NCBI GenBank assembly: GCA_963843375.1
Contig: CAWJKT010000009.1
Coordinates: forward strand, 256,001-320,000
DNA length: 64,000 nt
Direction: 5' to 3'
Source of the DNA: an uncultured Pseudomonadota bacterium
GTDB lineage: Bacteria > Oederibacteriota > Muellerivitia > Muellerivitales > Muellerivitaceae
The first letter of the stretch is position 1; the number at the start of each line of letters is the position of its first letter. Positions 426 through 15,845 of this stretch are shown here, piece by piece. Below the pieces are notes generated by a model. It worked only from the letters and a program-made list of their open reading frames with translations, did not search any database and was not told the origin of the DNA. The translations under genes were made by a program, and so were the position numbers.

Positions 426-444
426 GAAAATAGGGGGCATGGCT

Positions 445-563
445 TGTCCACGACGGGGACCCCTAAACCCTGAGTGGTTCGAGGGCCTCACCATCCGCGC
501 TCAAAGGGTCGATGAACTCAGGGCAAATTATAGGTCGTCCAATCTGGGAACCCGTCGTGGACA
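445..563. repeat. Cassette-boundary site 1, long form (half site, REP-like insert, full site at 536-563)
   Basis: TGTCCACGACGGGGACCC at 445; CGTCCAATCTG-GGAACC-CGTCGTGGACA at 536. Confidence 0.9.
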
Positions 564-648
564 AACCATTTGGGGCCTATCAACTGATTTTAGACGGGTT
601 TTCGTTTTGAGGTTTTATGAAATTTATAGAGAGTGTATAATGATTCCC

Positions 649-855
649 ATGAAGACCAAGAAAAACGTCTTAACACTTATCAAAAAAATCGAGGCCCTTC
701 CGGCCGACAAGATCAACGAGGTTGAGGATTTCGTAGAGTTCTTGGGTCACAAGGGCTCCGACAGGCAATTGACAAGGGCCGCCTCCAAACTTTCCGAAAG
801 GTCGTTTGCCAAGGTCTGGGATAATCCCGAAGATGCCATCTACGACAAGCTATGA
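649..855 (+). CDS. Antitoxin (DUF2281-like)
   Basis: IEALPADKINEVEDFVEFL...VWDNPEDAIYDKL; overlaps the downstream PemK-like toxin. Confidence 0.75.
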   Translation: MKTKKNVLTLIKKIEALPADKINEVEDFVEFLGHKGSDRQLTRAASKLSERSFAKVWDNPEDAIYDKL

Positions 856-1183
856 TTTCGGGGATGTTCTCCTAGTCCCTTTCCCATTCTCCAACCAAAC
901 TGCCGTTAAGAAACGCCCTGCTGTTGTCGTCAGTTCAAGCACCTACAACCTTTCTCGTCCTGACCTGATTATCCTGGCCCTTAGCAGCCAACCAGCAACT
1001 TCAAATGTGTTTGGGGGAACCAGCCTTTCCCACTGGAAAGGGGCAGGACTTTTGAAGCCTTCAGTTTTCAAGCCCATATTGGCCACGATTGAAAAGAGTT
1101 TGGTCATTCAAAAGCTGGGACGTCTTCATGCTAGCGATCAAAAGACCCTCCAACAGATATTAAAAACAGTTATTCAGGTTTAA
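833..1183 (+). CDS. PemK/MazF family toxin
   Basis: GDVLLVPFPFSNQ..KKRPAVVVS motif. Confidence 0.9.
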   Translation: MPSTTSYDFGDVLLVPFPFSNQTAVKKRPAVVVSSSTYNLSRPDLIILALSSQPATSNVFGGTSLSHWKGAGLLKPSVFKPILATIEKSLVIQKLGRLHASDQKTLQQILKTVIQV

Positions 1184-1200
1184 CTTATTGCCTCTAAACC

Positions 1201-1228
1201 TGTCCAACCTGGGGACCCGGATTGGACG
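1201..1228. repeat. Cassette-boundary site 2 (B-type arms)
   Basis: TGTCCAACCTG-GGGACC-CGGATTGGACG. Confidence 0.85.
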
Positions 1229-1323
1229 GTGTTTTGAGGCCGCCGATTCAACCTTTGGTGTTTGAAGGATTCTTCTTTAGTGATATCATAATGTCATAAG
1301 TGTTATCACTTTGGAGGTCCCCT

Positions 1324-1569
1324 ATGGTTCGTACTCAAATTCAATTGACCAAAAAGCAAACCACCTCGTTGAAAAGAATCGCCCAGGAGAGGCATATCTC
1401 CATGGCCGAAGCCATCCGCCAAGGCGTTGATTTATTCCTAAAGAATGGGATCATCAGTCCTGAGGAGCGCCGGAAACGGGCCATTGCCATTTCAGGGAAA
1501 TTTCATTCCAAGCACACCGACCTTTCCATCCATCACGACAAGTATTTGACTGAAGACTACGCCAAGTGA
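1324..1569 (+). CDS. CopG/RHH-type antitoxin
   Basis: MVRTQIQLT...SMAEAIRQGVD...HHDKYL; GGAGG RBS; 4-bp overlap with PIN gene. Confidence 0.85.
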   Translation: MVRTQIQLTKKQTTSLKRIAQERHISMAEAIRQGVDLFLKNGIISPEERRKRAIAISGKFHSKHTDLSIHHDKYLTEDYAK

Positions 1570-1964
1570 CCACTTTCATTGACACGTCTTTTTTCATCGC
1601 TCTTTTAACGAAAGAAGACCGCTTCCACGCGAAAGCTGATCAAGCTTGGCGATCTTTACTTGAATCGGACGACAACCTGGTTTCCACCAATTACACGCTT
1701 TTAGAGACGTTCTCCCTGATCCAAAACCGCTTGGGTTTGGAAGCTGTTACCGATTTTCAAAGGGATGTTGTGCCGCTTCTATCTTTGGAATGGGTTGATG
1801 AAAACTGTCATGAAGCGGGACTTGCCGCCGTGTTGACCGCCAAGCGAAGGAATTTGAGCCTCGTGGACTGCGTCAGCTTCGAAGTTATGCGGAGGAACGG
1901 AGTTAAGAATGTCCTTACCTTTGACAAGCATTTTGGAGAACATGGATTTCATTGTTTGCCATAA
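1566..1964 (+). CDS. vapC: VapC PIN-domain toxin
   Basis: FIDTSFFIAL...SLVDCVSFEVM...LTFDKHF. Confidence 0.9.
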   Translation: MTTFIDTSFFIALLTKEDRFHAKADQAWRSLLESDDNLVSTNYTLLETFSLIQNRLGLEAVTDFQRDVVPLLSLEWVDENCHEAGLAAVLTAKRRNLSLVDCVSFEVMRRNGVKNVLTFDKHFGEHGFHCLP

Positions 1965-1990
1965 AAGTTAAATGAATTGTTGGTATCTGC

Positions 1991-2018
1991 TGTCCACGAC
2001 GGGGAGGTGTAGTGGACA
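1991..2018. repeat. Cassette-boundary site 3
   Basis: TGTCCACGACG-GGGAGG-TGTAGTGGACA. Confidence 0.85.
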
Positions 2019-2108
2019 AGGGGTTTCCCCGGCCGACAAGCCATTTACTTGACGGTCCCTTTTCCAATGCATATAATTAATGCATATAGTTAATATGCAT
2101 CCCAGGAG

Positions 2109-2321
2109 ATGAAAATGCGGACCACCCTTGAACTTTCCAACCATTTGATCAAAGAACTCATGTCAGTGGAGAAATGGGCCTCCAAAACCCAGGCCATTGA
2201 GGCGGCCATCGACGATTTCGTCCGCCGGAAGAGACTGGATAAACTTATTTCCGCCAGGGGACGCTTGAAGGTGAAAGACGTTTCCTCCGAATTGCGGAAG
2301 ATGGAACTTCATGGCCGCTGA
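2109..2321 (+). CDS. vapB: VapB-type antitoxin
   Basis: MRTTLEL...SKTQAIEAAI; AGGAG RBS; overlaps PIN gene. Confidence 0.8.
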   Translation: MKMRTTLELSNHLIKELMSVEKWASKTQAIEAAIDDFVRRKRLDKLISARGRLKVKDVSSELRKMELHGR

Positions 2322-2700
2322 GATCCTGATTGACACATCGGTTTGGATCGACTATTTCCGCAAGCCGGACAGTGAAACCGGGGACAAGATCGTCAAACAT
2401 TTGAAACGCGGTTCCATATCTACTTGCGGAGTCGTCGTTTTTGAGGTCTTGCAGGGGGCGGCGGACCAAGAAGAGTTTTCTTTCCTGGAAGAGAACCTAA
2501 AAGGCCTGCATTTTCTCGAGGCAAACGCAGAGGCGTTTTTTGAGGCGGGGAAGGTTTCCTACGATTTGCGCAAGCATGGTATTACGCTCCCGTTAAGTGA
2601 CATTCTTATAGGCACTTTAGCCATGTCAAACCATCAAACGATTTGGACCAAGGACCAACATTTCAAAAAAATGAAAGGACTCCATCATCAGTTTTTTTAA
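2311..2700 (+). CDS. vapC: VapC PIN-domain toxin
   Basis: ILIDTSVWIDYFR...LSDILIG...WTKDQHF. Confidence 0.9.
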   Translation: MAAEILIDTSVWIDYFRKPDSETGDKIVKHLKRGSISTCGVVVFEVLQGAADQEEFSFLEENLKGLHFLEANAEAFFEAGKVSYDLRKHGITLPLSDILIGTLAMSNHQTIWTKDQHFKKMKGLHHQFF

Positions 2701-2709
2701 TTAGGCCTT

Positions 2710-2737
2710 TGTCCACGGCGGGGACCCGTCGTGGACA
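2710..2737. repeat. Cassette-boundary site 4
   Basis: TGTCCACGGCG-GGGACC-CGTCGTGGACA. Confidence 0.95.
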
Positions 2738-2809
2738 GCCAGTTCCACAATATTCACATTCTTGCGAGACCAAATCATTGATGGTATAACAGTTATATAT
2801 GGAGCCTAG

Positions 2810-3088
2810 ATGCGGTTTAAGTTCAATAGCAAAAAGAGTAATAGCCTCCGCCGGAACCGGGCACGCGGTATTGGTTTCGAGGAAGCTCAAAGGCTATGGG
2901 AAAGCCCTTACTATCTTGATCAACGTTCGGATTTACCCGAACAATGGCGGGCCATCGGTTGGGTTGTTGAAAGGCTCTATACCGTGATCTACGAAGAAAG
3001 ATCAGATCGCGATGGAGAGTATCTGCATCTTGTTACGCTGTGGAAGTCCACGAAGGAGGAGAGGAAGTTATATGAAAAGCACACATAA
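2810..3088 (+). CDS. brnT: BrnT family toxin
   Basis: F.FNSKKS...RGIGFEEAQRLW...WKSTKEERKLYE. Confidence 0.8.
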   Translation: MRFKFNSKKSNSLRRNRARGIGFEEAQRLWESPYYLDQRSDLPEQWRAIGWVVERLYTVIYEERSDRDGEYLHLVTLWKSTKEERKLYEKHT

Positions 3089-3356
3089 GGCAAAAACGGT
3101 TCCAACGGCGGAGCAAATAGCCCAAATGGTCGATAAGGGGGAGGACATCTCCAAACATTTCACGAACCACGGAAAAATGATGCCGGCCATCCGACGGGTC
3201 AATGTGGATTTCGCGGAAAACATGCTGCGGGAATTGGACAGTTTAGTCCGTGAGATGAACGTGAGCCGCCAGGCGGTCATTAAATCAATCCTTCGCCAGG
3301 GATTGGATCAGCATTATTTGGCTAAGAAGAAACGTCCCCACCTGACGGCTCGTTAA
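3072..3356 (+). CDS. BrnA/CopG-like antitoxin
   Basis: DKGEDISKHF...RRVNVDF...LD....MNVSRQAVIK, C-terminal RHH. Confidence 0.8.
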   Translation: MKSTHKAKTVPTAEQIAQMVDKGEDISKHFTNHGKMMPAIRRVNVDFAENMLRELDSLVREMNVSRQAVIKSILRQGLDQHYLAKKKRPHLTAR

Positions 3357-3370
3357 TCATTTAAACCAGC

Positions 3371-3398
3371 TGTCCACGACTGGGACCCGTCGTGGACA
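3371..3398. repeat. Cassette-boundary site 5
   Basis: TGTCCACGACT-GGGACC-CGTCGTGGACA. Confidence 0.95.
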
Positions 3399-3444
3399 GG
3401 GCAAACCATTGCGTTGTAACTATACTGTAGGGTATACTAAAAAC

Positions 3445-3716
3445 ATGCTCGTCATTTGGGATCCCCAGAAAGCCATTTCCAATCAAAAAATCACGGGGTC
3501 TCATTTGAAGAGGCTCAATCCGTATTGGAATCCGACGTTCAATTGGTGTTGGAGGATAGTGAACACCACGAACAAAGATTCATCGTGCTTGGGTATTCAA
3601 AGAAACTAAACCTATTGGTGGTGGTTTACGCTTACCGGGAAATGGATGTCATCCGGATCATCTCGGCCAGAAAAGCCACACGAAAGGAACGGGAAAACTA
3701 TGAAAAAAGAATATGA
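3445..3716 (+). pseudogene. brnT: BrnT family toxin with a frameshift in an A6 run (about 3485-3490)
   Basis: MLVIWDPQKAISNQK in one frame; HGVSFEEAQ...IRIISARKATRKERENYE in the next. Confidence 0.8.
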
Positions 3717-3957
3717 TTTTTCTAAAGCGAAGGTCCATAAAGGCCCTCTTTTAGCTTCCAAAGGTTCTAAGATTCAGAAAACCTTCCGGTTGGATGAGTC
3801 TGTTTACCATTGGCTTATCGAGGAAGGAAAAAAACAAGGAATCCCTTACCAAACTCTCATGAACTCCATTTTAAAGCGTTCAATGTCCGATAATTCAACC
3901 CTCGAAGAACGCGTTCGTAAAATCGAGCATAAATTAGGCCTGAAAAAAACTGGCTGA
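3700..3957 (+). CDS. brnA: BrnA antitoxin
   Basis: MKKEYDFSKA...FRLD...GIPYQTLMNSIL. Confidence 0.85.
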   Translation: MKKEYDFSKAKVHKGPLLASKGSKIQKTFRLDESVYHWLIEEGKKQGIPYQTLMNSILKRSMSDNSTLEERVRKIEHKLGLKKTG

Positions 3958-3995
3958 TTTCCCTGGACGAATTAGTTTTTGTAAATCGAAGGCCT

Positions 3996-4023
3996 CGTCC
4001 ACGACGGAGACCCGTCGTGGACA
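3996..4023. repeat. Cassette-boundary site 6
   Basis: CGTCCACGACG-GAGACC-CGTCGTGGACA. Confidence 0.95.
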
Positions 4024-4275
4024 ATAAATGCTTCAATAATTTAAATAAGTTTAAATTGCATGGTTTGTTTTAAAGGGCTGGGGGGGATTAACCGGAGCGG
4101 ATTGGTCGCGGGCCCAAAATGGAAAATGGAGACTGGGCCCGTTTTTATTGAATAAAATCACCTTTTAATTTGTTGGCTAATTTCCTTGACTGTCACCTTT
4201 TTTGCTAATAAGATTCCCCCCAGTTAAATGGTTTCCCATGCTTTTCCCCTCCCCATATCATGCCAAGGTGGTCCC

Positions 4276-5541
4276 ATGAGATTTCGAATCTTAGGATTAT
4301 TTTCCCTTTTGGTGGGAATGACTTTTTTAACCCTCGGTTGCCCATCCAAGTCCAACAGCCCCTCCGGCCCTACCGCTCCCGCGCCGACTAATACGCCCGC
4401 CGTAACATCCACGCCTACCAACACCGCGACCATTACGTCTTCTTCCACCCCTACTGGAACACCCACCAAAACCGGCACCCCAACCCTTACTGGAACACCC
4501 ACCAACACAGCCACTGCCAGCCCCACCGCCACGATCACCCCGACACCCACGATCACCGCGACCGCCACGATCACCAATACACCGACTGATTCCGCTACTT
4601 CCACCCAAACCGGAACGTCCACTGACACGGCCACAGTCTCACCCACCGCCACGGTCACCAGTACCCCAACCAACAGCCTAAGCCCCACCCCGACGGGTAC
4701 GCCGACCGATAGCCCCAGTCCCACTCCGACCGGCACACCGACCAATACCTTCCAATTCACGCCCACGGCCACGCCTAGCGCCACCACTACCGAAACCCCC
4801 AGTTTGACTCCGACCAGCAGCCCCACACCAACTCCCAACTGCACGGGTTCCTATTCCATATCCGGAAACGTGGATTACACGGGCTCGACGGTTTCGGGCA
4901 ACAGCGTGGCGGTGCTTATCATTTCACAACCCGACCTTGGCGGCGGCAGCGGTGATGGTTGTAACCCATTCTCCTCCGTCCTCGGAACCACGCCTGGGAG
5001 CTATTCCTACAACATCTCCACTATTCCCTCGGGCAGTTTTTACGTTGTTGGGGTTTACGGAACATTCGGAAGCAACGGACCCAACCTGGGGGATTACGTT
5101 GGGGACTACGGCAACGATTGTCCCCTCACGGGTTCCACCTTGGTGGCCCTCTCCAGCGGCAATCCCAGCGCGAGCAATGTCGGCGTGACCTTCGGCAACA
5201 CTTGGACGCTTTGGGGCATCAACGCGACCGTCAACTACAGCGGATCACAAACCAACGGTGAAATCTATGTCGGGCTCTTTTCCGCGGTCAATGTTGGCGC
5301 CGGAACTTACACCCAAATTACGAATACCGGCGTCAATTCTTCGGGCCAGACAAAAACCCTCATCGATCAAATCAATAGCTGTGGCTCGACGGGCGCGTCC
5401 GTTTACGTGATTGGATGGTACGGCAGCAATCCCAACGGGCCGAACGCGGGGGACAATTACGTTGAGTTCTCCACCACCGAGGTGAACAACCCAACGACGA
5501 CGACAACCGTTAATATCAGCAGCTCCGCGACTTGGCCATAA
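4276..5541 (+). CDS. Surface lipoprotein with long Thr/Pro/Ser linker and two related beta-rich C-terminal domains
   Basis: Hydrophobic signal ending LTLGC; about 160 aa T/P/S tract; [18 protein letters not shown] versus [20 protein letters not shown]. Confidence 0.75.
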
Positions 5542-5580
5542 GATTGGCCAAGTTTTTTGGGGACTAACGCCTATGCCGAC

Positions 5581-5608
5581 AAAGCCCCGCCTCTGGCGGG
5601 GCTTTTTT
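5581..5608 (+). terminator. Rho-independent terminator
   Basis: AAAGCCCCGCC-TCT-GGCGGGGCTTTTTT. Confidence 0.9.
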
Positions 5609-5805
5609 GTCTTCATGGAAGAAGGACCGGCAAGGGTGGGGAATAATATTTGAACACCAAATCCGGAATCATCACCGAATAGAAAACCCTCAAAAGCACT
5701 TCCAAAAGATCGAATTTTGGCCGTCTATCCCGCTTTTATCGAAAGGGCTAATTTGCCCCAGGTTCTTTACGCCTCATTCGCTGAATAGTGAGGTGAAGAA
5801 AGGAC

Positions 5806-5833
5806 TGTCCACGACGGGTCCCCGTCGTGGACA
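5806..5833. repeat. Cassette-boundary site 7, inverted orientation
   Basis: TGTCCACGACG-GGTCCC-CGTCGTGGACA; spacer is the reverse complement of GGGACC. Confidence 0.95.
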
Positions 5834-5882
5834 GGGGAAATTTTGTTTAGTGAAGTCTGATTTTATTTTTTGGAGAAGAAAA

Positions 5883-6485
5883 TTGTCTTATCGAATAATA
5901 CAGCCACCATTTACGCTAAAATTCAAGGAAATGCCAAAAACTGAATTGAAAGCCTATTTTGATTGGTTTGTGTCTCAAATCCCTGAAAGATTATCTGTAT
6001 TGGAATCTTCGGTGAATGAAACAAAAGGATTTGAAGATTGGTCGGCTAATTATTCTATATCTTCATTATCTTCATTAAAAAAATTAGGAAAATGGTTTGA
6101 AACTAAAGCCAATACACGGACAAGAACCAAACAAGAAATGGAGAAAATTAGAGGTAATTTCAATTTTCCTACTGAGATTTCAGATCAAGAACTGACGAAT
6201 GAAACTTTTTCAATAGCAATTGATATTGGGATGTATTTTGCAGAGGTCTTGAGGAAAAAGCATAAAAATTTGCAATGGAACTTTATAACGAAAGGGCGAA
6301 AAGACTGGATTGATTATGGCCAACCTATTTTGATTGGGTTTGACATTATTGGTCTGAATCCAGTTCATATTATGGTTACATTGGCATATGGATTTGTAAA
6401 AAAGAGTAAGTCGGGGGAAAGATTAAGTGAACTCTTTTCAATTTGGTCCGGGAAAGCCAAGAAAAGAGCGAAGGGTCCAAATTAA
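5883..6485 (+). CDS. Hypothetical protein (AT-rich cassette)
   Basis: TTG start after GGAGAAG; ORF fills the interval between sites 7 and 8. Confidence 0.65.
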   Translation: MSYRIIQPPFTLKFKEMPKTELKAYFDWFVSQIPERLSVLESSVNETKGFEDWSANYSISSLSSLKKLGKWFETKANTRTRTKQEMEKIRGNFNFPTEISDQELTNETFSIAIDIGMYFAEVLRKKHKNLQWNFITKGRKDWIDYGQPILIGFDIIGLNPVHIMVTLAYGFVKKSKSGERLSELFSIWSGKAKKRAKGPN

Positions 6486-6505
6486 CCTTTTTGTGATGAA
6501 TCGGT

Positions 6506-6533
6506 TGTCCACGGCGGGGACCCGTCGTGGACA
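6506..6533. repeat. Cassette-boundary site 8
   Basis: TGTCCACGGCG-GGGACC-CGTCGTGGACA. Confidence 0.95.
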
Positions 6534-6564
6534 ATGGAAACCTGGATTTGATTTCTATATCAAC

Positions 6565-6972
6565 TTACATCCAACCTGTCCGCCATTGTTGGCGCGATAG
6601 CCACACAAAGATCAGGATGATCAGCGGCGCCACCACATGCATTACGGGTTCGCCGCCGTGAAGAAGGTATGAAGCCGATGCGCCCAACAGGTCAAAGGTA
6701 AAACCCGCATAAGCCCATTCTTTGAGGGTGCGGAATTTTTTACTGCCGAAAAGAACCGCAATACAGCCGAGAATCTTGGCCACTCCCAAAATAGTACAAA
6801 GGTAAGCGGGGTAACCCAAGGCGGTAATCCCTTGAACATTCTCCGGTGCAGCCATCAGCATCATCACTCCACCCGATCCCATGGCTGAAACCACCAAGAG
6901 CGTCTCGATCCAATAGAATATCTTCGCCATCGTCATGTATTTCGCTTTCATTTCCGCTACGTTCTTCGCCAT
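6565..6972 (-). CDS. DoxX-like membrane protein
   Basis: LGYPAYL..ILGVAKILG...LKEWAYAGFTFDL. Confidence 0.85.
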   Translation of the reverse strand: MAKNVAEMKAKYMTMAKIFYWIETLLVVSAMGSGGVMMLMAAPENVQGITALGYPAYLCTILGVAKILGCIAVLFGSKKFRTLKEWAYAGFTFDLLGASASYLLHGGEPVMHVVAPLIILIFVWLSRQQWRTGWM

Positions 6973-7000
6973 TTCACTTCTCCTTTGTTTTGATTCCTGC

Positions 7001-7474
7001 TTAAACTTTATTCACAAACGACTCGAACTTTTTAAGCTGATGATTCCAGGCCAGGTCCGAATCCAGCTGTTTGCGGAAGGTCTTGGCGTTCTCCCCAAAC
7101 TTTTCCAAATTCCGATGCTCCAGCTTGACCCAGGTTTTATCTTTCCCCTCGGATACAAAAGTGATTTCCACCTCGGTCGCGAAAGAAGGATCCAATTGAA
7201 AAGAGGCGGTGAGGTGCCACGCTAAAAGAATTCGATTCGGCTGCTCCCAGGCCAGCACCGTGGCCCAGTCACCCCGGGTGCCGTCTTCGGCTATTCCATA
7301 AAAACGGCCGTTCACCCTTGTCTCCAGAACCGCTTGTTTCAGTTGGGATTTGCCAACGCGGTATTCCCGGGGATACCAAGCGTCGATATTCTCCGTAAAG
7401 GCCGTGAAAGCCTCCAACAGGGGAATATTCACAAAAACCTGCTTCCGAATCGGTTCGATCATTGAGTCGGTCAT
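7001..7474 (-). CDS. SRPBCC/AHSA1-like protein
   Basis: AF.AFTE.I..W.P...VLAWEQPNRILLAW...TEVEITF...LEHRN. Confidence 0.85.
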   Translation of the reverse strand: MTDSMIEPIRKQVFVNIPLLEAFTAFTENIDAWYPREYRVGKSQLKQAVLETRVNGRFYGIAEDGTRGDWATVLAWEQPNRILLAWHLTASFQLDPSFATEVEITFVSEGKDKTWVKLEHRNLEKFGENAKTFRKQLDSDLAWNHQLKKFESFVNKV

Positions 7475-7800: not shown

Positions 7801-7807
7801 ATCAACC

Positions 7808-8745: not shown

Positions 8746-8767
8746 TTCTGTAGCATGTGCTATAGAA
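8746..8767. promoter_or_regulatory. Probable TetR operator
   Basis: TTCTGTAGCA-TG-TGCTATAGAA inverted repeat in the divergent intergenic region. Confidence 0.55.
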
Positions 8768-8812
8768 TTTAAGCGGAGATATTTCCCACGATGTTGTGGT
8801 TAGGAGACGAAA

Positions 8813-9706
8813 ATGAACGAAAGTATATTGATAACAGGAGCAAATATTGGGCTTGGGAAAGAAACCGCCCGACAGTTAGCCCTGAAAAAAGAAACAAAAA
8901 AGGTAATTCTTTTTTGCAGAAATCAAGAAAAAGCCGAGGCAGCAAAAAAGGACCTTGAGGAGAAAACGGGAAAAAAGATTTTTGAAATTATTATTGGGGA
9001 TGTTTCGGATGCGAATTCTGTAAGAAAAGCAGTAGAAAAAATAAAGGACCCTATTGATGCCGTCATTTTAAACGCAGGTGGAATGGTTGGGAAAACTGCT
9101 GCGCAAATCACACCCTCTGGCATGAATAATTTGGCCGCGACTAATATTTTAGGTCATGTGGTTCTAGTGGATGAGCTTCTAAAACAAGATAAGTTAAAAA
9201 AAGTAGTACTATTTGTAAGTGCGGAAGCTGTACCGGGAGTAAAGCCTCTCGGAATGAAACCAGTTTCAATGAAGACTTCCTCTGTGGATGAGTTTGCTGC
9301 GGTTCTTGATGGTTCATTTTTTGGTAAAAAGTTCGATGTAACCCAAGCATACGGATACGTTAAATATGTAGGAACGATGTGGACGTTATCAATGGCAAGA
9401 AAATATCCTGATCTCAAATTTGTTGTTATGAGTCCCGGCAACACAAAGGGAACTCTGGCACCGGATAACTTGCCCCAGCCTATGAGATTTATGTTGAAGT
9501 ACGTAATGATGCCTATTGTGTTTCCATTGATGGGTGGAATGGTGCACGAGATAGAGGTAGGTGTAAAACGCCTCGTCGATGGCATTTCGGATGAGCGATA
9601 TAAAAGTGGCGTTTTTTATGCGAGTAAAGAGGGTAAGCTATCGGGGGACGTGGTTGACCAGAGCACGTTTTTTCACTGCTTTGAAAAATACTACATTTCA
9701 AGATAA
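8813..9706 (+). CDS. Short-chain dehydrogenase/reductase (true end may be 9743 if a T run is mis-called)
   Basis: ITGANIGLGKETA, LNAG, YGYVK motifs. Confidence 0.85.
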   Translation: MNESILITGANIGLGKETARQLALKKETKKVILFCRNQEKAEAAKKDLEEKTGKKIFEIIIGDVSDANSVRKAVEKIKDPIDAVILNAGGMVGKTAAQITPSGMNNLAATNILGHVVLVDELLKQDKLKKVVLFVSAEAVPGVKPLGMKPVSMKTSSVDEFAAVLDGSFFGKKFDVTQAYGYVKYVGTMWTLSMARKYPDLKFVVMSPGNTKGTLAPDNLPQPMRFMLKYVMMPIVFPLMGGMVHEIEVGVKRLVDGISDERYKSGVFYASKEGKLSGDVVDQSTFFHCFEKYYISR

Positions 9707-9745
9707 CGCTGATAAAGCAATTCACCGGAATATTGTGGCCTAGCG

Positions 9746-10384
9746 ATGAAAAAAGTGTTGGGTGAGCTAACTTGGGCCGCTTCTTATGTTTTTCTTGTCC
9801 TGGGATTCCGGGCTTGTCTTCATGCAGAAACGTCAACAAGTGAGGAATTGCTGGCTACCTATCCCCCCGCACAGTTTAAATTGGATTTCAAGGATGATGG
9901 GGAGCAGGATACGCTGACATTGACCTGCAAAAAGGTCAAAGATTATTCGGTGGATCCTGATACGAAAGAGAAAATCTCGGAGAAAAAGTTTGTTTGGTAT
10001 CAATTTCACATGACCATTGTTTCGCCAAACCATGAAACCCTCTGGGATGATACCTATTCAATTAAAGACGAGGATTACAGCGGGCTTTTTGAAAACTTCG
10101 ATACCCCCTTCCTAACGCCAGCGGTTTATATAAAAAAATATTTTTCAGTGAAATTCAACCACATTGTAAATTGGAAAATAAGTAAAGATGAAATCGATGA
10201 AGATTTAATTAAACAAAAAATCAAAGACACGAAAGTGAAGGTTCGGGTGGAAGATGTTGAAAAAGAGATTCTTACTGGCAAGCATACTGTCGTATTTTAC
10301 CGAGGTGACTGGGCGGTGGACTTGAGGCAGGCGGTGTATTCAAAAAAGCTTCGTAGTGCGGTTGGCTTAGCATGCCCTTATTAA
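9746..10384 (+). CDS. Secreted hypothetical protein
   Basis: Signal-like N-terminus; stop 9 bp before site 10. Confidence 0.6.
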   Translation: MKKVLGELTWAASYVFLVLGFRACLHAETSTSEELLATYPPAQFKLDFKDDGEQDTLTLTCKKVKDYSVDPDTKEKISEKKFVWYQFHMTIVSPNHETLWDDTYSIKDEDYSGLFENFDTPFLTPAVYIKKYFSVKFNHIVNWKISKDEIDEDLIKQKIKDTKVKVRVEDVEKEILTGKHTVVFYRGDWAVDLRQAVYSKKLRSAVGLACPY

Positions 10385-10393
10385 GGCTACCCT

Positions 10394-10421
10394 TGTCCAC
10401 GGCGGGGAGCCTTCGTGGACA
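10394..10421. repeat. Cassette-boundary site 10
   Basis: TGTCCACGGCG-GGGAGC-CTTCGTGGACA. Confidence 0.9.
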
Positions 10422-10535
10422 AGGAAATAAGGCAATAAACGGATAAATGAATATCACCCTTTTAATAGTGAATTGGATAATTGGCCCGTTTGGAATACAA
10501 TCTGAATAAGCTAATGTAAGCAAAGGGGAACGGTC

Positions 10536-10769
10536 ATGAGTCTCGCCGTCAAAGTACCTGTGGACCTTGAAAATCTTATCCAACAGCTTTCCGTGAAAGA
10601 CAAAATCAAGCTGGCCCACGAGCTCGAAAGGCAGACCCGGCGCGAACGTTGGACCCCCCTTCTCAACCGCATCCAAAAACGGACGGCCAAAAATCCGGTC
10701 ACTGATAAAGAAATAACTGCGATTGTCAAAGAAGCCAACCGGGAATTACATGGCAAAGGCCGTCGTTGA
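10536..10769 (+). CDS. Putative antitoxin
   Basis: 77-aa ORF overlapping the PIN toxin; DKEITAIVKE C-terminus. Confidence 0.65.
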   Translation: MSLAVKVPVDLENLIQQLSVKDKIKLAHELERQTRRERWTPLLNRIQKRTAKNPVTDKEITAIVKEANRELHGKGRR

Positions 10770-11163
10770 TACCAATGTATTGATTGGTATTCTTCTCGGA
10801 AGCCATAATTGCCTGGCGGTGCGCGAGGCTTTCCTGGATGGCCTTTTTGACATCCTCATTTCACCTGAACTCGCCGCCGAGTTCATCATCACCTGCCAAA
10901 AACCAAAACTTTCCAAACTCATTCATCCTGGTGATGTCGCGGACACGATGGAGCTTTTAAAAAGCGATGCGGATTGGGTTGCTCCAAAAGTTAAAATCTT
11001 CGCAATCCGTGACCCCAAGGACAATCCCGTATTGGAATGCGTTGTCGCAGGGAAGGCCGATTTCATCATTTCGGGCGACAAAGACCTACTCGATCTCAAA
11101 TCTTTCCGGAAAATTAAAATTATTAATCCTCGGCAATTTTTAATGCTTTTGAAAAGGGCTTAA
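10750..11163 (+). CDS. PIN-domain putative toxin
   Basis: AVVDTNVLI...RDPKDNPVLECVVAGKADFIISGDKDLL. Confidence 0.9.
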   Translation: MAKAVVDTNVLIGILLGSHNCLAVREAFLDGLFDILISPELAAEFIITCQKPKLSKLIHPGDVADTMELLKSDADWVAPKVKIFAIRDPKDNPVLECVVAGKADFIISGDKDLLDLKSFRKIKIINPRQFLMLLKRA

Positions 11164-11171
11164 CTCCGAGC

Positions 11172-11199
11172 TGTCCACGACGGGGACCCCAAAGGAACA
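11172..11199. repeat. Cassette-boundary site 11 (right arm degenerate)
   Basis: TGTCCACGACG-GGGACC-CCAAAGGAACA. Confidence 0.8.
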
Positions 11200-11265
11200 A
11201 TAGTTTAAAGGCAAAAGGGATAGTAATTTGTTTGATGCAAATTTGGTATCATGTATAATACCAAT

Positions 11266-11694
11266 ATGAAACCATTGAGAATTGTACTGGACACCAACAT
11301 TCTCGTCTCCGCTTTAAGGTCGCGCCTAGGCGCTTCGCACCAGTTATTATTGGCGGTGGGCGACAAACGGCTTCAACTTCAACTATCAGTGGCGTTGTTA
11401 TTGGAATATGAGGCTGCCATTAAAAATCCCAATAGCGGCATCAACCTTTCGGCGGATGAAAAAGACGATATCCTGGATTATCTCTGCGGTGAAGCGAAGC
11501 ACTGTAAAGTGCATTACCTTTGGAGACCTTGCTTGAAAGACCCGGGAGATGACATGGTCCTGGAAGTGGCAGTTGCTTCGGAAGCAAGTGGGATTGTCAC
11601 TTTTAACAGGCGGGATTTTAAAGGGATTGAGGCTTGGGGCCTAAAGATTTATACACCCCAGGAAATTTTGAAGATTTTAGGAGGCCATAAATGA
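11266..11694 (+). CDS. PIN-domain putative toxin
   Basis: IVLDTNILVSALRS..GAS...WRPCLKDPGDDMVLEVA...IVTFNRRDF. Confidence 0.9.
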   Translation: MKPLRIVLDTNILVSALRSRLGASHQLLLAVGDKRLQLQLSVALLLEYEAAIKNPNSGINLSADEKDDILDYLCGEAKHCKVHYLWRPCLKDPGDDMVLEVAVASEASGIVTFNRRDFKGIEAWGLKIYTPQEILKILGGHK

Positions 11695-11930
11695 GTGCCA
11701 TTAGCTTGAGATTACCGAATAACCTTCACCGTTCCGTCCGGGAATTGGCGGGAAAGGAACATGTTTCGATCAATCAAATGATCACCTTGGCCCTTGCGGA
11801 AAAAGTCTCAGCCTTGATGGCGGATGAATATTTGGGCCGCCGGGCCAAGCGTGGAAGCAAGGCGAAATTCCTCAAGGCGATGGGGCATGTTGAAAAAATC
11901 GAGCCAGAGGCCAAAGACAAGTTACGGTGA
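11691..11930 (+). CDS. RHH/HicB-like antitoxin
   Basis: ISLRLPNNLH...SINQMITLALAEKVSAL; ATGA overlap. Confidence 0.8.
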   Translation: MSAISLRLPNNLHRSVRELAGKEHVSINQMITLALAEKVSALMADEYLGRRAKRGSKAKFLKAMGHVEKIEPEAKDKLR

Positions 11931-11986
11931 CCTTCTGAGGTTTCCTTGAATTGGTTAGGCGACAACTAAAGAATGATCTGGAAGGT

Positions 11987-12014
11987 TGTCCACGACGGGG
12001 ACCCGGGGTGGACA
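11987..12014. repeat. Cassette-boundary site 12
   Basis: TGTCCACGACG-GGGACC-CGGGGTGGACA. Confidence 0.9.
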
Positions 12015-12085
12015 ATATCAATTTGGGAAACGTTGTAAACATTTTGGTTCAAATCATTAATCCAAAAACAGGGAGGTATAAGAGC

Positions 12086-12763
12086 ATGAAAAATTATTTG
12101 AAAAACCTGGTGCTTTTGTTCTTGTTGTTGGTCCGCGTTGCGGGGGCCCAATCCGGCAACCTGCAACCAAATGATTTTGAAAATTCCGCAAAAGAACAAC
12201 TAGTGTCCCTAAAGGAAACCGTTTCAAGTTTGACCAATGAAAAAGGAGATCTCAGCGACAGGCGCGGTGATTTGACTCTACGGATATTAAAGGAATATTT
12301 GAATGACAAGGCGGATGAAGCGACATCCCAAAAGAACACACAAGGAGCCGCTTATTACCAAAAAGAGAGCTTGGACCTTCAATCATTGCATGACGATATT
12401 TATGCCCATAGCATTAAAATTAGGGACCTCAACCATCAGATGGAAAACTTGCGTGTCGGTTTATACACCGAAGTCATTGATAGATTTACCCAGAGTTTTG
12501 AAAATGATAAAAACTCCAAAGCCGTCTCAATCCTCAAGGAATGCAAAGGTTTCCTTGAAAAGGCTCAATCCATTGTGGAAAAGAAATTTGAGCTGGCCCA
12601 AAATGCCACCGAGGTTAAGAAGAATGGTAATTTCCAAACCGTACCCGATATCCGCAAGCAGATCGATGAACTTCAAAAACAATACGATAAGCTCATTTCG
12701 GACACCCAGGTGAAAATGAAACAAATTGGGTTGGATAAAAACAATCCTCTACTCAATATCTAA
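12086..12763 (+). CDS. Secreted helical/coiled-coil hypothetical protein
   Basis: GGGAGG RBS; signal peptide ending AGA-Q. Confidence 0.65.
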   Translation: MKNYLKNLVLLFLLLVRVAGAQSGNLQPNDFENSAKEQLVSLKETVSSLTNEKGDLSDRRGDLTLRILKEYLNDKADEATSQKNTQGAAYYQKESLDLQSLHDDIYAHSIKIRDLNHQMENLRVGLYTEVIDRFTQSFENDKNSKAVSILKECKGFLEKAQSIVEKKFELAQNATEVKKNGNFQTVPDIRKQIDELQKQYDKLISDTQVKMKQIGLDKNNPLLNI

Positions 12764-12906
12764 TCTCAATGTCGGTCGGTGATCGGGGAGGACATTTTTT
12801 GATTCTCATCCCAGGCTTCGGTCCGTTTCTCTCTTTTCCCCGTCCCCCAAAATCCCTAGTCAGAATCGCAAGTAGCGCCTTTTGAAATGTTGCAATGCAA
12901 GTATCT

Positions 12907-12991
12907 TGTCCACGGCGGGGACCCCGTTCGGCTCCCTTTGGTCGCTCAGGGCAAATTATAAGTCGTCCAATCTGGGGACCCTGATTGGACA
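12907..12991. repeat. Cassette-boundary site 13, long form (full site at 12964-12991)
   Basis: TGTCCACGGCGGGGACCC, insert, CGTCCAATCTG-GGGACC-CTGATTGGACA. Confidence 0.9.
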
Positions 12992-13056
12992 GATGAGAAG
13001 TAAGAAATATCTCGCTTGGATTGAATTTAAAGGGATGAATCTAAAAGAGGCCTCCT

Positions 13057-13971
13057 GTGTTTAAGTTATCAATGATATCAATTTTTATTTTTGCCGCACA
13101 AATCACGTTCGGCGGAGAACTTCAAGCAATAGTTTATTGTAGTGGTACTAATGAGGATGATTTGGGGTTGTGTAGTATCTCGCCCGAAGGTACAAAGCAC
13201 TCCTGCTTAAATGATCGAGATCATTCACTTTTAAATAATCATTATTCCTCTCCAGCTTGGAAACCCAAAAGCAAAGAACTTGTGGTCGAATACGCAAAAC
13301 CTGATGGGGATCGAATACTGGAATTAATTGATGGCCTTGGGAATAAGATTCGCGAAGTTAACAAATCCTTTAATTTTATGAGACCCGTTTGGAGCCCCGA
13401 TGGGAGCCACATTTATGCGTTGAAGTATGGGATAGGGCCACAAATAGGACAATGGGATTCAAATGGGATGAACTTTAAATTTGTACCCATTGTGGGCGCG
13501 CCTAACAACACGAACGCCCCTAATAGCCAAGGTGATTTTCAAATGATTTCTTTCAGCCCTTCAGGGAAAAGCGTCGCTTTGCTCAACTACGGGTTCAAAC
13601 AGATCATTGTAGCTAGTGTGAAAGAACAACAATTTGTCGCTCAAAAAGAACTTCCGACGAATTTTAATTACGTGGCCCAGTCGGCATGGCTTGATGAGAG
13701 TCATTTGCTATTTGTCGGGAGGTTAAATCCGGGGGCTGCCAATCTTTGGGAACTGAACATTGGGGATGGTTCTACGCGTTTAGTGGAAATTCCTAACCTT
13801 TCGCTTCAGGATTACTTTGCCCTCTCGCCGGATCGAAAATCAGTTGTTGTTTGCGCGACAGAAAAAAATCAAAATTTGTGTTGGAGTCTTTGGGAGTATT
13901 TGTTGGGTTCTCCCGCGGCCAAGAGACTTACAACAAGAAATCTGGATTCCGGCCCTACCTGGGGGGACTGA
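13057..13971 (+). CDS. Secreted TolB-like (PD40) beta-propeller protein
   Basis: Repeated PAWKP / PVWSPDG / SFSPSGK / LSPDRK motifs. Confidence 0.7.
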   Translation: MFKLSMISIFIFAAQITFGGELQAIVYCSGTNEDDLGLCSISPEGTKHSCLNDRDHSLLNNHYSSPAWKPKSKELVVEYAKPDGDRILELIDGLGNKIREVNKSFNFMRPVWSPDGSHIYALKYGIGPQIGQWDSNGMNFKFVPIVGAPNNTNAPNSQGDFQMISFSPSGKSVALLNYGFKQIIVASVKEQQFVAQKELPTNFNYVAQSAWLDESHLLFVGRLNPGAANLWELNIGDGSTRLVEIPNLSLQDYFALSPDRKSVVVCATEKNQNLCWSLWEYLLGSPAAKRLTTRNLDSGPTWGD

Positions 13972-13991
13972 GTATTAACGGTTGCAAAGCT

Positions 13992-14076
13992 TGTCCACGA
14001 CGGCGACCCCGTTCGACTCGCTAAGCTCGCTCAGGGCAAATGATAGGTCGTCCAATCTGGGGACCCGGAGTGGACA
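13992..14076. repeat. Cassette-boundary site 14, long form (full site at 14049-14076)
   Basis: TGTCCACGACGGCGACCC, insert, CGTCCAATCTG-GGGACC-CGGAGTGGACA. Confidence 0.9.
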
Positions 14077-14115
14077 GAAGAAAAAAGGATTGAATTTCTT
14101 GTTTAATGTCGCGAG

Positions 14116-15045
14116 GTGTTGATGCAATTCTTCAGAATAGATAAAAAAATCATCCTTTTAGTGGTTTATGCACTTCTGCAAGCCATTGGGATGAACCATG
14201 GTGTTTGGGCAGATCCGGCAGGCGTGTCCACTTCAAAAATTCAAAATGACGATCCCTGCGAAGACTTTATTCGCCAATGGATTGACGGGAAAAATAAAAC
14301 CATTCCAATCAAATTACGTGAGAGGATTCAAAAATATTTAGGGAAGGAAGTTCTCTATCCTCCGCCCATTTCCACAAAAGAGGCTCCCTTTTTTCTTCCG
14401 AAACCTAATGAAATACGGGCTAGTTTTAAAATGGTGCCCTATGCTGATGCAGAATACCAATATAAGATCGATTCTGAATTTATAGCCGCGGGGGACATGG
14501 TTGAAACGAGATATGGGAAATCACCCGTCACCTTCATGCTACATAACGTCTTTTCTTCATTCATCCAAAACCATACTTACTTCCTGGTGAATTATGAGAA
14601 AGACGATTCGGAAACGGACTCAACCGAATATTACAACCTCTATTTGCAAACATCCCCAAAAGCAGTAAGTGAATTAGTTCACGGCGCTTCCCATATTGAC
14701 TTTTTCACTCTTGGAAAAAATTCACCCATATTTGTGGTGGAGGAAAGCCAAACATTTGATGCACATTTCAAAGGTGGATTTTATCAGGTAAGGGGAGATG
14801 GAACCTTAAAAGAGTTGCAAAACTTGGAAGCCTTTAAAGTAAGTTGGGATATCGCTGATTTTGAGGGAAATGGTAATTCGGAACTCATGGTAAGTGAGGA
14901 GATGGACGTCCCCAAACGACCGACTGATTGTAAGGGACATGGAACCTGTTTTTTTCGCGAAATGAAGATCAAAAAATGGGACGGCGTCCAATACGATACG
15001 ATCGCAGATTATTTCTACATTGAACCCTGTGATGTTGTTAGATAG
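14116..15045 (+). CDS. Secreted hypothetical protein
   Basis: Signal-like N-terminus; DFEGNGNSEL loop; fills the cassette. Confidence 0.6.
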   Translation: MLMQFFRIDKKIILLVVYALLQAIGMNHGVWADPAGVSTSKIQNDDPCEDFIRQWIDGKNKTIPIKLRERIQKYLGKEVLYPPPISTKEAPFFLPKPNEIRASFKMVPYADAEYQYKIDSEFIAAGDMVETRYGKSPVTFMLHNVFSSFIQNHTYFLVNYEKDDSETDSTEYYNLYLQTSPKAVSELVHGASHIDFFTLGKNSPIFVVEESQTFDAHFKGGFYQVRGDGTLKELQNLEAFKVSWDIADFEGNGNSELMVSEEMDVPKRPTDCKGHGTCFFREMKIKKWDGVQYDTIADYFYIEPCDVVR

Positions 15046-15059
15046 AAATAAATTAAAGT

Positions 15060-15087
15060 TGTCCACGGCGGGGACCTGTCGTGGACA
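15060..15087. repeat. Cassette-boundary site 15
   Basis: TGTCCACGGCG-GGGACC-TGTCGTGGACA. Confidence 0.95.
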
Positions 15088-15185
15088 TGCAAAATGGGGC
15101 TAGACCTGACATTTCACCGGATTGCCACGGGGCCCCGGGTTTGATATAAGTATGGTAAGTAGTGCCATACTATTGGGGAGGCGAA

Positions 15186-15383
15186 ATGAAAATTACAACC
15201 CATATTGACGAAGCTCTCTTACGGCAGGCGAAACGCAAAACGGGTATCGTTTCTCAACGGGAAATCCTGGAAACCGGCTTACGTAACTTATTGGCGGATA
15301 TCCAAAGAAAAAGTTTCGTGAAGGATTTTGATAAGTTCCGCCTTGATCTCACACTCAATTCACTCAAAGGATCCAGGGGTTGA
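15186..15383 (+). CDS. vapB: VapB-type antitoxin
   Basis: MKITTHIDEALL.QA...GI.S.RE; GGAGG RBS. Confidence 0.8.
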   Translation: MKITTHIDEALLRQAKRKTGIVSQREILETGLRNLLADIQRKSFVKDFDKFRLDLTLNSLKGSRG

Positions 15384-15814
15384 ATCAGCTTTATCTGATT
15401 GACAGTTCGGCCTGGATTTTTGCGTTGGGTTCCAGGCCCCTGGAGGCCATACGAACGCGGGTGAAAGAATTGGTGGAAAACAATCTTGCAGCCATTACCT
15501 CACCTATCTTCTTCGAGCTTGTTTCTTCCGAAAAATCTCAGGCCCATTCGACACTATTGGCGGCGCATTTATCGGCCCTTCACCCTTTCCCCTTATTGCC
15601 AAATGAGTGGGCGGAGGCGGCCGAGTGGACTAGAGAACATCGCCAAAAAGGGCGTAAATTAAAAACGGTTGATGCTTTGATTGCCTTTAAAGCGTATAAA
15701 CACAATCTGACCCTGGTTCACGCTGATGCGGACATGGACAGGATTGCAAGCCATTCCAAATTGGAAGTGGAAAGCTATGTCCGGCAGGTTCGCTCTGTCC
15801 ATCGGAGCAGTTAA
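15380..15814 (+). CDS. vapC: VapC PIN-domain toxin
   Basis: YLIDSSAWI...VDALIA...LVHADADM. Confidence 0.85.
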   Translation: MNQLYLIDSSAWIFALGSRPLEAIRTRVKELVENNLAAITSPIFFELVSSEKSQAHSTLLAAHLSALHPFPLLPNEWAEAAEWTREHRQKGRKLKTVDALIAFKAYKHNLTLVHADADMDRIASHSKLEVESYVRQVRSVHRSS

Positions 15815-15817
15815 AGT

Positions 15818-15845
15818 TGTCCATGGCGGGGAGGCGAAATGAAAC
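15818..15845. repeat. Cassette-boundary site 16 (terminal, left arm only)
   Basis: TGTCCATGGCG-GGGAGG followed by an unrelated right side. Confidence 0.7.

Follow-up and report, generated by a model that had tools for sequence, protein, structure and literature searches.

A candidate gene-cassette system with 28-base sites and a short serine recombinase in bacteria labelled FCPU426

Introduction

To our knowledge, platforms that collect gene cassettes are known essentially from one invention, the integron, in which a tyrosine recombinase acts on folded single-stranded attC sites. An attC site spans about 57 bases or more, has RYYYAAC...GTTRRRY ends and contains an unpaired spacer and extrahelical bases; group II introns occur at these sites. 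A second, looser example of a cassette platform is given by the Xer-dependent dif modules. Large serine recombinases carry a zinc-ribbon domain with a coiled coil after their Recombinase domain, and in the large serine integrases the coiled-coil part restricts which pairs of sites react. Excerpts of the IntegronFinder paper describe clusters of attC sites without an integrase, called CALINs (PMC4889954), and excerpts of two papers on Acinetobacter describe dif modules bounded by 28-bp pdif sites (PMC6449649, PMC13141974). Here we analyse a window of 64,000 nucleotides (the whole stretch from position 256,001 to 320,000 of contig CAWJKT010000009.1, assembly GCA_963843375.1, called C9 below) from an uncultured bacterium whose 4.05-Mb genome (G000) is 80% complete. 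The first quarter of this window carries an array of small gene cassettes separated by copies of a 28-base motif. We consider it probable that these copies are the crossover sites of a site-specific cassette system, for which a short serine recombinase is the most likely enzyme.

Results

The site and its distribution

The motif, TGTCCACGACGGGGACCCGTCGTGGACA, matches the window 14 times at 10 places with at most three mismatches, against none expected (100 shuffles). A profile made from 48 copies of the motif in the genome recovers 19 of the 19 places that a first-pass annotation of the bare sequence had listed, and its best match beyond 15,832 has E = 0.39 over 17 bases, in agreement with that annotation, which had found no copy in the other 48 kb. 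Full 28-mers stand at 15 of these places (536, 1201, 1991, 2710, 3371, 3996, 5806, 6506, 7939, 10394, 11987, 12964, 14049, 15060 and 15818, the last being a hybrid), while the left half and core alone are retained at four (445, 11172, 12907 and 13992); a second arm type, arm2, is present at 536, 1201, 12964 and 14049. The same annotation made the array run from 445 to 15,845. The end stands, with one last small unit reaching 16,162, but the start lies 13.5 kb upstream of the window, at C9:242,536. It also placed most sites 3–40 bases behind a stop codon: in 12 cassettes the site does start shortly after the stop codon of the preceding plus-strand open reading frame (ORF), over a wider range of 3–56 bases. 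In the cargo, which it described as toxin–antitoxin pairs, secreted orphans and regulator–enzyme pairs, Pfam recognizes toxin–antitoxin and regulator–enzyme units (MazF, VapBC, BrnT/BrnA, ArsR with DoxX, TetR with SDR). Site orientation is nearly uniform within a cluster and mostly matches gene direction, and cassettes whose genes lie on the minus strand retain the site orientation of their array.

The site can be parsed as 13-2-13, that is, two inverted 13-base halves flanking a non-palindromic GA, of which the G is retained in 46 and the A in 47 of the 48 copies. The conserved unit is about 30 bases long and the flanking sequence is almost information-free. The left half (TGTCCACGACGGG) is nearly invariant and the right half is variable and cassette-specific. 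A core-anchored census of the arms in G000 (85 hits, given as left/right arm type) yielded 34 sites of type 1/1, 16 of 1/2, 15 of 1/other, 8 of other/1, 5 of other/2, 3 of 2/2, 1 of 2/1 and 3 of 2/other. When the left half and GA were used as an anchor across all the DNA examined, CCC came next in 242 of the 271 unique sites, and the sequence diverged directly after GA in the other 29, which lie in unrelated contexts. As DNA, a full site forms a perfect hairpin of 12–13 bp with an uninterrupted stem (-14.7 kcal/mol, z -5.2 for site 2710), and hybrid sites fold no better than shuffles (z -1.9 at 1991, +0.7 at 11172 and +0.2 at 15818). This retention of the constant half in sites unable to pair suggests that a protein recognizes the half-sites as duplex DNA and that the site does not function as a hairpin. 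A role as intrinsic terminator was rejected: in a test for a GC-rich hairpin with a run of T, one of about 19 sites had a T-rich tail, on the minus strand only. An Rfam scan of the window gave no family at gathering score.

In G000, 64 sites (at most six mismatches) are found on 8 of the 32 contigs, and 58 of them fall in six clusters, which together make up about 131 kb of the 4.05 Mb, or about 3% of the DNA. Elsewhere in this genome, arrays end next to ordinary genes (such as rplS/trmD, ruvA/ruvC, acetate kinase). The motif is present, near letter-for-letter, in 26 of the 30 other genomes of the same family, in which the motif read backwards, as a control, gave no hit. It is also present in the one genome from the second family of the order, and absent from the 15 genomes that represent the remainder of the phylum. 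Its named carriers are metagenome-assembled genomes labelled candidate division FCPU426, apart from a few with other labels.

Reassortment of cassettes and insertion of the array

We compared the array with G001, a genome of the same genus that is 99% complete. The housekeeping flank at 16162–19999 of the window is colinear with G001 at 78–82% identity. The two flanks of the array, C9:242,542 and 272,162, are 29.6 kb apart in G000 and about 700 bases apart in G001, where no site was found in the 20 kb upstream of the syntenic gene. On this comparison the array amounts to 29.6 kb of inserted DNA, for which the syntenic spot of G001 has no counterpart. The empty spot carries a degenerate arm2-like site; in G000 the left junction consists of a chromosomal half followed by the right half of the motif, and the right junction of the left half of the motif followed by a non-motif half. 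This secondary site (G001:C4:386,560-386,600, locus L166; G000 C9:242,520-242,545) is preceded by a T-loop-like TTCGA(G/A)TCCAA, and ARAGORN found no tRNA at the insertion point.

Cassettes of the array have counterparts elsewhere in G001: eight cassette pieces match different G001 arrays, one each, with 77–93% identity, and the two matches that cover a full cassette (2710–3400 and 3371–4023) have G001 sites at both ends. When the site-proximal flanks of 238 unique sites (G000, G001 and named loci) were compared, the upstream flank proved common to 31 pairs of sites, the downstream flank to 49 and both flanks to only one. When upstream flanks are at least 95% identical, the right inner arm is the same in three of six pairs, the three differences being of 3–4 bases; when downstream flanks are at least 95% identical, 11 of 14 pairs agree in this arm and the others differ by 1–2 bases. 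These counts fit a cassette that would begin with a right half of its own and finish with the constant left half. In short, low-depth contigs from four sequencing runs, the joints 6532->7942 and 7966->11987 rest on 26–29 letters, which are the repeat itself, and contig ends that hang loose at site edges are what any repeat gives.

A short serine recombinase linked to the sites

The only recombinase found physically tied to the sites is a short serine recombinase of 274–289 amino acids (aa), composed of a Resolvase domain (PF00239, 76 bits) and a Recombinase domain with nothing after them: the Recombinase domain ends at residue 273 of 281, and there is no zinc-ribbon or coiled-coil part. The conserved Ser and Arg motifs of the Resolvase catalytic domain are visible in its sequence, and its best sequence match among solved structures is 3guv (E 7e-8), an N-terminal domain of the resolvase family. 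Nine intact copies were found, in G000, G001, G022, G042, G045 and four metagenome contigs. In eight of them, no more than about 40 bases separate the gene end from the start of a site, the gene ending 9–35 bases before this primary site, which is either a hybrid of a recombinase-proximal arm with the constant half of the motif or, in locus L203, an unrecombined arm3/arm3' site. The copy of G000 is counted among the eight through site C9:134162, which adjoins the remnant of a second copy and not the intact gene. The ninth copy (L201) has a perfect site 111 bases away.

In G000 the recombinase gene lies on the same contig as the array of the window, about 105 kb from it; the array itself encodes no recombinase. 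Next to site C9:134162 come, in this order, a 59-base remnant (93% identical) of the 3' end of the second copy, a group II intron and the intact gene, which is thereby about 3 kb from the site. The intron is recognized by its D1–D4 domains in Rfam (119 bits), by a domain V/VI match of 39.9 bits against a 40-bit cut-off and by an ORF with reverse transcriptase and maturase domains; its locus (L292) covers C9:134162-138005, about 118–122 kb upstream of the window. The neighbours of the recombinase gene, judged by eye from their translations, are ArdC-, RadC- and NYN-like.

Remnants truncated at the 5' end are present in G042, G018, G046 and G022. Remnants in five loci retain the 3' end of the gene, four of them ending in a hybrid site and that of G046 in a perfect site. 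No site is found at their truncation points, which are therefore plain deletions. Homology among recombinase modules stops at the outer edge of the site. The dN/dS ratio is 0.05–0.16 in 21 of 28 pairs, the other seven being saturated, and the C terminus of each of the eight copies compared is at most about 10 residues from the same motif; this low ratio and the common C-terminal end indicate that the short form is a maintained protein. Relatives of 500–570 aa in the same genomes have sites nearby at none of eight family loci, and only 2 of 76 more distant metagenome loci have a match, a weak one with seven mismatches. The five genomes with an intact short recombinase have 13–65 sites (median 36) and the 24 genomes with neither a copy nor a remnant a median of 3.5, a contrast that amounts only to a tendency because the genomes are kin and differ in size.

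The recombinase genes also allow an empty and an occupied primary site to be compared. In metagenome locus L203 the recombinase gene is followed by an empty arm3/arm3' site, TGTCCCCTCAGGG.TC.CCCCTAGGGGACA, and then by the flank. In G001 the order is recombinase gene, CGTCCCCTAGGGG.TC.CCCATCGTGGACA (arm3/arm1'), a cassette encoding a TPR protein, TGTCCACGACGGG.TC.CCCGTCGTGGACA (arm1/arm1'), a cassette encoding a 709-aa protein with a beta-lactamase fold, TGTCCATGACGGG.TC.CCCCAAGGGGACA (arm1/arm3') and the flank, and both flanks are homologous to those of L203 (84% and 68%). This structure is the one expected if two cassettes had entered the recombinase's own primary site by exchange within its 8-base core. 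The two inserts are ordinary cassettes ending in the constant half-site, not a mobile element with the recombinase, and no second element end was found within 7.8 kb 5' of the recombinase gene. A footprint of the recombinase gene is present within the array of G000, 6.5 kb upstream of the window: behind the site at C9:249527 stand a recombinase-proximal arm and 15 bases identical to the end of the recombinase gene, stop codon included. This footprint ties the array to a recombinase platform of this kind.

Other enzymes

None of the 31 family genomes has an integron integrase, a tyrosine recombinase with the IntI-specific insertion, that reaches the cut-off of NCBIfam TIGR02249 (best score 84.5 bits against 265; 47.5 bits in G000). 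No Y1/RAYT transposase (PF01797) was matched in the 80% complete G000, and no IS110-type transposase in five genomes. We first suspected a group of tyrosine recombinase paralogs of about 370 aa, which are multi-copy in motif-rich genomes, and rejected them as classical island integrases. The six paralogs of G000 (C6:226038, C8:84965, C8:179354, C9:31181, C11:49933 and C11:206672; 58–66% identity) have an excisionase-like helix–turn–helix gene upstream in five cases and a tRNA-like sequence, found by eye, downstream of at least two; the nearest site is 2.9 kb to more than 60 kb away, unless their contig has none at all. Across the bacterial family there are 0–9 copies per genome, a number that tracks the motif only loosely. 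Upstream of three of these integrase genes is a repeat of up to 1.78 kb, 100% identical, with a gene for a 513-aa protein and the appearance of an insertion sequence (C11:~46,900-48,700, C8:~176,500-178,300 and C8:~88,200-89,100).

A single-copy Xer-like recombinase is present in all four family genomes that lack the motif. These genomes contain no site with three mismatches or fewer (one degenerate copy is present in G024) and no copy of the outer arms TGTCCA-N16-TGGACA. As they keep the Xer-like gene without the motif or its outer arms, we rejected the idea that the motif is the dif site of this lineage.

Features of the array in the window

The cargo identified by Pfam comprises one MazF-type toxin, three VapBC pairs, two BrnT/BrnA-type pairs and orphans, together with two PIN_3 modules (one with an RHH partner), an ArsR and DoxX unit and a TetR and SDR unit. 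A scan of 25 cargo proteins for defence systems gave a sole match, of the winged-helix part of an ArsR-type regulator with Csa3 models. Features described below lie on the plus strand unless stated otherwise, and percentages are identities with homologs in G001.

The window opens on the end of a penicillin-amidase-family cassette (1..444; PF01804, E 1.4e-14; gene end at 425, full ORF of 723 aa) that starts upstream, after site C9:254233. Then comes a doublet made of a half-site, with the constant left half, GA and CCC followed by unrelated sequence (445..472), an ORF-less spacer (473..535) ending in a conserved CTCAGGGCAAATTATAGGT, an end common to three doublets, and a site with an arm2-type left half (CGTCCAATCT), a central AA and an arm1-type right half (536..563). 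The next cassette (564..1200) encodes a PemK/MazF-type toxin (806–1183; PF02452, E 3e-11) behind a small upstream ORF, its homolog being at G001:C2:1489767-1490339 (85%), and is closed by a site with arm2-type halves on both sides (1201..1228; DNA fold -10.6 kcal/mol, z -3.2). An RHH antitoxin (1300–1569) and a PIN toxin (1566–1964) occupy 1229..1990, with a homolog at G001:C2:1901913-1902605 (80%), before a hybrid site composed of the constant left half, GA and GGTGTAGTGGACA (1991..2018). VapB (2109–2321) and a PIN VapC (2311–2700) follow in 2019..2709, where 2049–2077 is a promoter-like match, and a full site with one mismatch stands at 2710..2737. The BrnT-like protein (2810–3088) and RHH protein (3012–3356) of 2738..3370 have homologs whose ends are on sites at G001:C2:1196595-1197285 (83%) and C5:251280-251959 (78%). 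Between a full site with one mismatch (3371..3398) and another with two (3996..4023), the BrnT (3456–3716) and BrnA (3646–3957) cassette of 3399..3995 is homologous to G001:C4:139999-140652 (88%), again with both ends on sites.

A 437-aa orphan (4228–5541) with its own terminator-like hairpin (5581–5605) fills the cassette at 4024..5805, which ends in a perfect site in the opposite orientation (5806..5833, minus strand, with TC at its centre on the plus strand). This is the only inverted site of the array, and GC skew is -0.17 over 4001–6000 and positive elsewhere; the inverted site and the change of skew may be the trace of an inversion between sites. The orphan ORF of 5834..6505 has an open frame from 5607 to 6485, its start having to be past the site, and is followed by a full site with one mismatch (6506..6533). 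The cassette at 6534..7938 is on the minus strand and encodes DoxX_2 (6565–6972), a 157-aa ORF (7001–7474) and an ArsR-type regulator (7471–7848); a full site with one mismatch (7939..7966) separates it from a cassette (7967..10393) with TetR (8077–8664, minus strand), SDR (8813–9706) and a 212-aa orphan (9746–10384), of which the TetR part is homologous to G001:C5:42651-43340. Beyond a full site with three mismatches (10394..10421), a PIN_3 protein (10723–11163) with a small upstream ORF (10422..11171; homolog at G001:C2:276807-277525, 77%) precedes a hybrid site made of the constant left half, GA and CCCCAAAGGAACA (11172..11199), a type of right half that adjoins recombinase genes in G042 and G018. 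The second PIN_3 protein (11251–11694) is paired with an RHH/HicB-like one (11691–11930) in 11200..11986, closed by a full site with two mismatches (11987..12014).

Orphan coding sequence (12303–12713 or 11951–12763) occupies 12015..12906. Two further doublets then frame a 304-aa protein with a PD40-type repeat (13057–13971, cassette 12992..13991): the one at 12907..12991 has a half-site at 12907, a 29-base ORF-less spacer and an arm2/arm2' site at 12964, and that at 13992..14076 has a half-site at 13992, a spacer and an arm2-type site at 14049. The array ends with a 309-aa orphan (14116–15045, cassette 14077..15059), a full site with two mismatches (15060..15087), a cassette of VapB (15162–15383) and PIN VapC (15380–15814) at 15088..15817, the terminal hybrid site, in which the constant left half has one change and GA is followed by a non-motif right half (15818..15845), and the last small unit (15846..16162), an 80-aa ORF at 15921–16163 with no counterpart in G001, homology to which resumes at 16162. 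All three doublets (445–563, 12907–12991 and 13992–14076) consist of a left half-site, 29–63 ORF-less bases and a site whose left half is of the arm2 type, and their spacers end in a conserved CTCAGGGCAAAT(T/G)ATA(A/G)GT. They look like ORF-less mini-cassettes, possibly carrying a putative promoter for the next cassette.

GC content per 2 kb is 0.42–0.52 in the array against 0.45–0.57 in the rest of the window, where it climbs to 0.57 at 42–46 kb. Pfam, applied to four ORFs of 16163–64000, identified an epimerase, a nucleotidyl transferase and a Rieske protein and left one without a match. Several very large Thr/Pro-rich secreted proteins are encoded in or beside arrays (C9:247194-252336, upstream of the window; C6:4197-7490; C6:20750-24472; C18:49398-51647); their last 80 or so residues are similar (...FRKV...GLYYL...LILR or KVLVIR) and may be a shared sorting or anchoring domain.

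Discussion

The clustering of the sites, the reassortment of cassettes as units, the insertion of the array relative to a congener, the swap of arms at the core and the linkage of a recombinase to the sites together make up the case for a site-specific cassette system, in which the short serine recombinase is most likely the catalyst. The first-pass annotation had proposed a platform for acquiring and shuffling cassettes that uses a site other than attC, and reassortment, insertion and clustering support this proposal. As it predicted, the features of attC and IntI are absent, no IntI scoring over the cut-off and the unit being of about 30 bases. The two patterns that it held to speak against such a platform are not what we see: 58 of 64 sites lie in six clusters instead of being scattered after housekeeping genes, and module order is not conserved in the congener, as the array is absent in G001 and its cassettes occur singly elsewhere. 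The recombinase that it suggested looking for upstream is lacking in the array itself, but a candidate, the short serine recombinase, lies about 105 kb away.

We propose that exchange takes place at, or very close to, the centre of the site, between half-sites; a cassette would then have its own variable right half at its 5' start and the constant left half at its 3' end. It would thus consist of its own right half-site, its genes and the constant left half-site (TGTCCACGACGGG) shortly past the last stop codon. Recombination between two direct sites would excise a circle with one site, which could re-enter at any site or at a weak secondary one (the arm2-like site left empty in G001 is an example), and entry at secondary sites would create arrays between ordinary chromosomal genes. 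The non-palindromic GA would set the polarity of the reaction, and the crossover would fall at this 2-base centre. The short serine recombinase would work in trans; its gene belongs to a platform of its own and ends there just before the primary site. By analogy with the large serine integrases, loss of the coiled-coil part might let the enzyme recombine like sites in both directions. A further step, which we take only tentatively and would not yet call probable, is to regard the whole as an independently evolved counterpart of the integron, in which a short serine recombinase that has lost its zinc-ribbon and coiled-coil control part would act in either direction on near-identical 28-base duplex sites, and would capture, store and reshuffle cassettes on its own primary site and, in trans, in many chromosomal arrays across a family of FCPU426.

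Several observations weigh against this interpretation. Close orthologs of the recombinase are present in 5 of the 31 family genomes, with remnants in two more, and no resolvase-domain gene was found in G023 (35 sites), G021 (31), G005 (28), G010 (21) or G016 (13), of which G005 is 98% and G010 99% complete. The motif is equally well conserved in genomes without a resolvase-domain gene; arrays without an enzyme may be relics, may be served from unbinned mobile DNA or may depend on another enzyme. Neither the interior of the array nor the ends of the remaining G000 arrays contain a recombinase. A split primary site was observed in G001 only: 17 kb of G042:C8 yielded no complementary distal half, and the contigs of G022 and G045 break off within their arrays. 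The exchange point is mapped to the 8-base core only, the argument for a 2-base centre being drawn from the 29 of 271 sites that diverge after GA, some of which may have decayed. The flank-linkage counts are small and some pairs are non-independent. No circular cassette or excision product was seen in the short, low-depth contigs of the four runs. Finally, it could be that a mobile element uses the recombinase as its integrase and the sites simply as targets.

This last point leads to an explanation that we find unlikely, in which the cassette system is driven by an enzyme not yet recognizable as such and the short serine recombinase is the integrase of a mobile element with the sites as its target, as attC is for some insertion sequences and group II introns. 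It would account for the phyletic gaps of the recombinase, for the mobile-element-like genes, among them the confirmed group II intron, that surround the copy of G000, and for the many 5'-truncated remnants, which suggest a decaying selfish gene; the relatives of 500–570 aa are moreover ordinary large serine recombinases without sites nearby. It does not predict that the inserts in G001 are ordinary cassettes with no recombinase-bearing element, that the 7.8 kb 5' of the gene contain no second element end or that the short form is under strong purifying selection, and the searches for IntI, Y1 and IS110 were negative, no other family being linked to the sites. Somewhat less likely still would be the same cassette system driven by a tyrosine recombinase, the housekeeping Xer-like enzyme (a role also proposed for it in the Acinetobacter dif modules) or another, on a site parsed 11-6-11 like dif. 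The 28-base length fits this parse as it fits 13-2-13, a single-copy Xer-like recombinase is present in all the genomes tested (5/5 and G000), a housekeeping enzyme would explain conserved sites where no serine recombinase exists, and one constant and one variable arm are reminiscent of pdif sites. However, the four motif-less genomes retain the Xer-like gene, so that their dif must be another sequence, 29 of 271 sites vary right after GA, in what would be the overlap, and no tyrosine recombinase adjoins the sites, which are direct repeats here, whereas the pdif sites around a module alternate.

That the motif is a hairpin acting at the RNA level (a transcript end or stabilizer) or like a repetitive extragenic palindromic (REP) element, with reshuffling as a by-product of homologous exchange, is in our opinion very unlikely. 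The perfect 12–13-bp stem of the full site, its position 3–56 bases past stop codons and an orientation that mostly follows the genes are all compatible with such a role, but the sites are clustered rather than scattered, no Y1/RAYT transposase is detected in G000, a T-rich tail accompanies one site in about 19, the left half is conserved where a hairpin is impossible and cassettes with minus-strand genes keep the site orientation of the array. Exact swaps of arms at the core and insertion at a weak secondary site would also be unexpected for homologous exchange over 28 bases. A true integron, or an integrase-less attC cluster with an unusually short attC, would fit the layout and cargo, which match those of sedentary chromosomal integrons; it is extremely improbable, given that no integron integrase scores over the cut-off in 31 genomes and that the unit of about 30 bases has no RYYYAAC/GTTRRRY ends, no unpaired bases and no central spacer.

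If the proposed cassette system is real, it would be a third one, and cassette capture would have evolved more than once, here with a site and a probable enzyme unrelated to those of the two earlier systems and working on a short duplex site. Neither the motif string nor an account of a comparable system turned up in the open papers that could be searched, a search that covered neither supplements nor non-open papers. A 28-base site and a protein of 280 aa are easy to synthesize and assay, and a small serine recombinase for identical minimal sites could serve as a genome-engineering tool. The arrays, which would otherwise be annotated as unrelated 'toxin–antitoxin islands', represent much of the variable gene content of these peat and soil bacteria.

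Compared with sedentary integrons and CALINs, the arrays likewise consist of small, mostly co-oriented cassettes that each end in a site shortly past a stop codon. As in integrons, the content includes toxin–antitoxin pairs, orphans and ORF-less units, cassettes reassort as units at the sites, a recombinase gene has a primary site that receives cassettes, and a group II intron is found near a site; as with CALINs, one genome has several arrays without an adjacent recombinase. Unlike integrons, they have a symmetric, duplex-like site of 28 bases without R and L boxes, unpaired spacer or extrahelical bases, there is no IntI and the candidate enzyme is a serine and not a tyrosine recombinase; the proposed exchange would occur at the centre of the site and leave half a site at each cassette end, and the recombinase gene faces the downstream end of its array. 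The dif modules of Acinetobacter resemble them in that 28-base sites bound accessory modules, toxin–antitoxin modules included, which reassort between replicons, and in that the enzyme, here the candidate, would act in trans and is not encoded by the module. They differ from these modules in that the motif is unrelated to the dif-like sites of the lineage, the arrays are chromosomal and made of long series of direct repeats, and the Xer-like enzyme has no link to the motif. The candidate enzyme itself has the Resolvase catalytic domain followed by the Recombinase domain of the large serine recombinases, but the protein stops about eight residues past the latter, without zinc ribbon or coiled coil, its sites are near-identical instead of being distinct attP and attB, and it is linked to arrays of many cassettes, not to one phage or transposon. 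In its inverted half-sites, its non-palindromic central dinucleotide, which would set polarity, and recombinants that are clean hybrids of half-sites, the site resembles those of large serine recombinases and the small resolvase and invertase sites such as res site I and hix.

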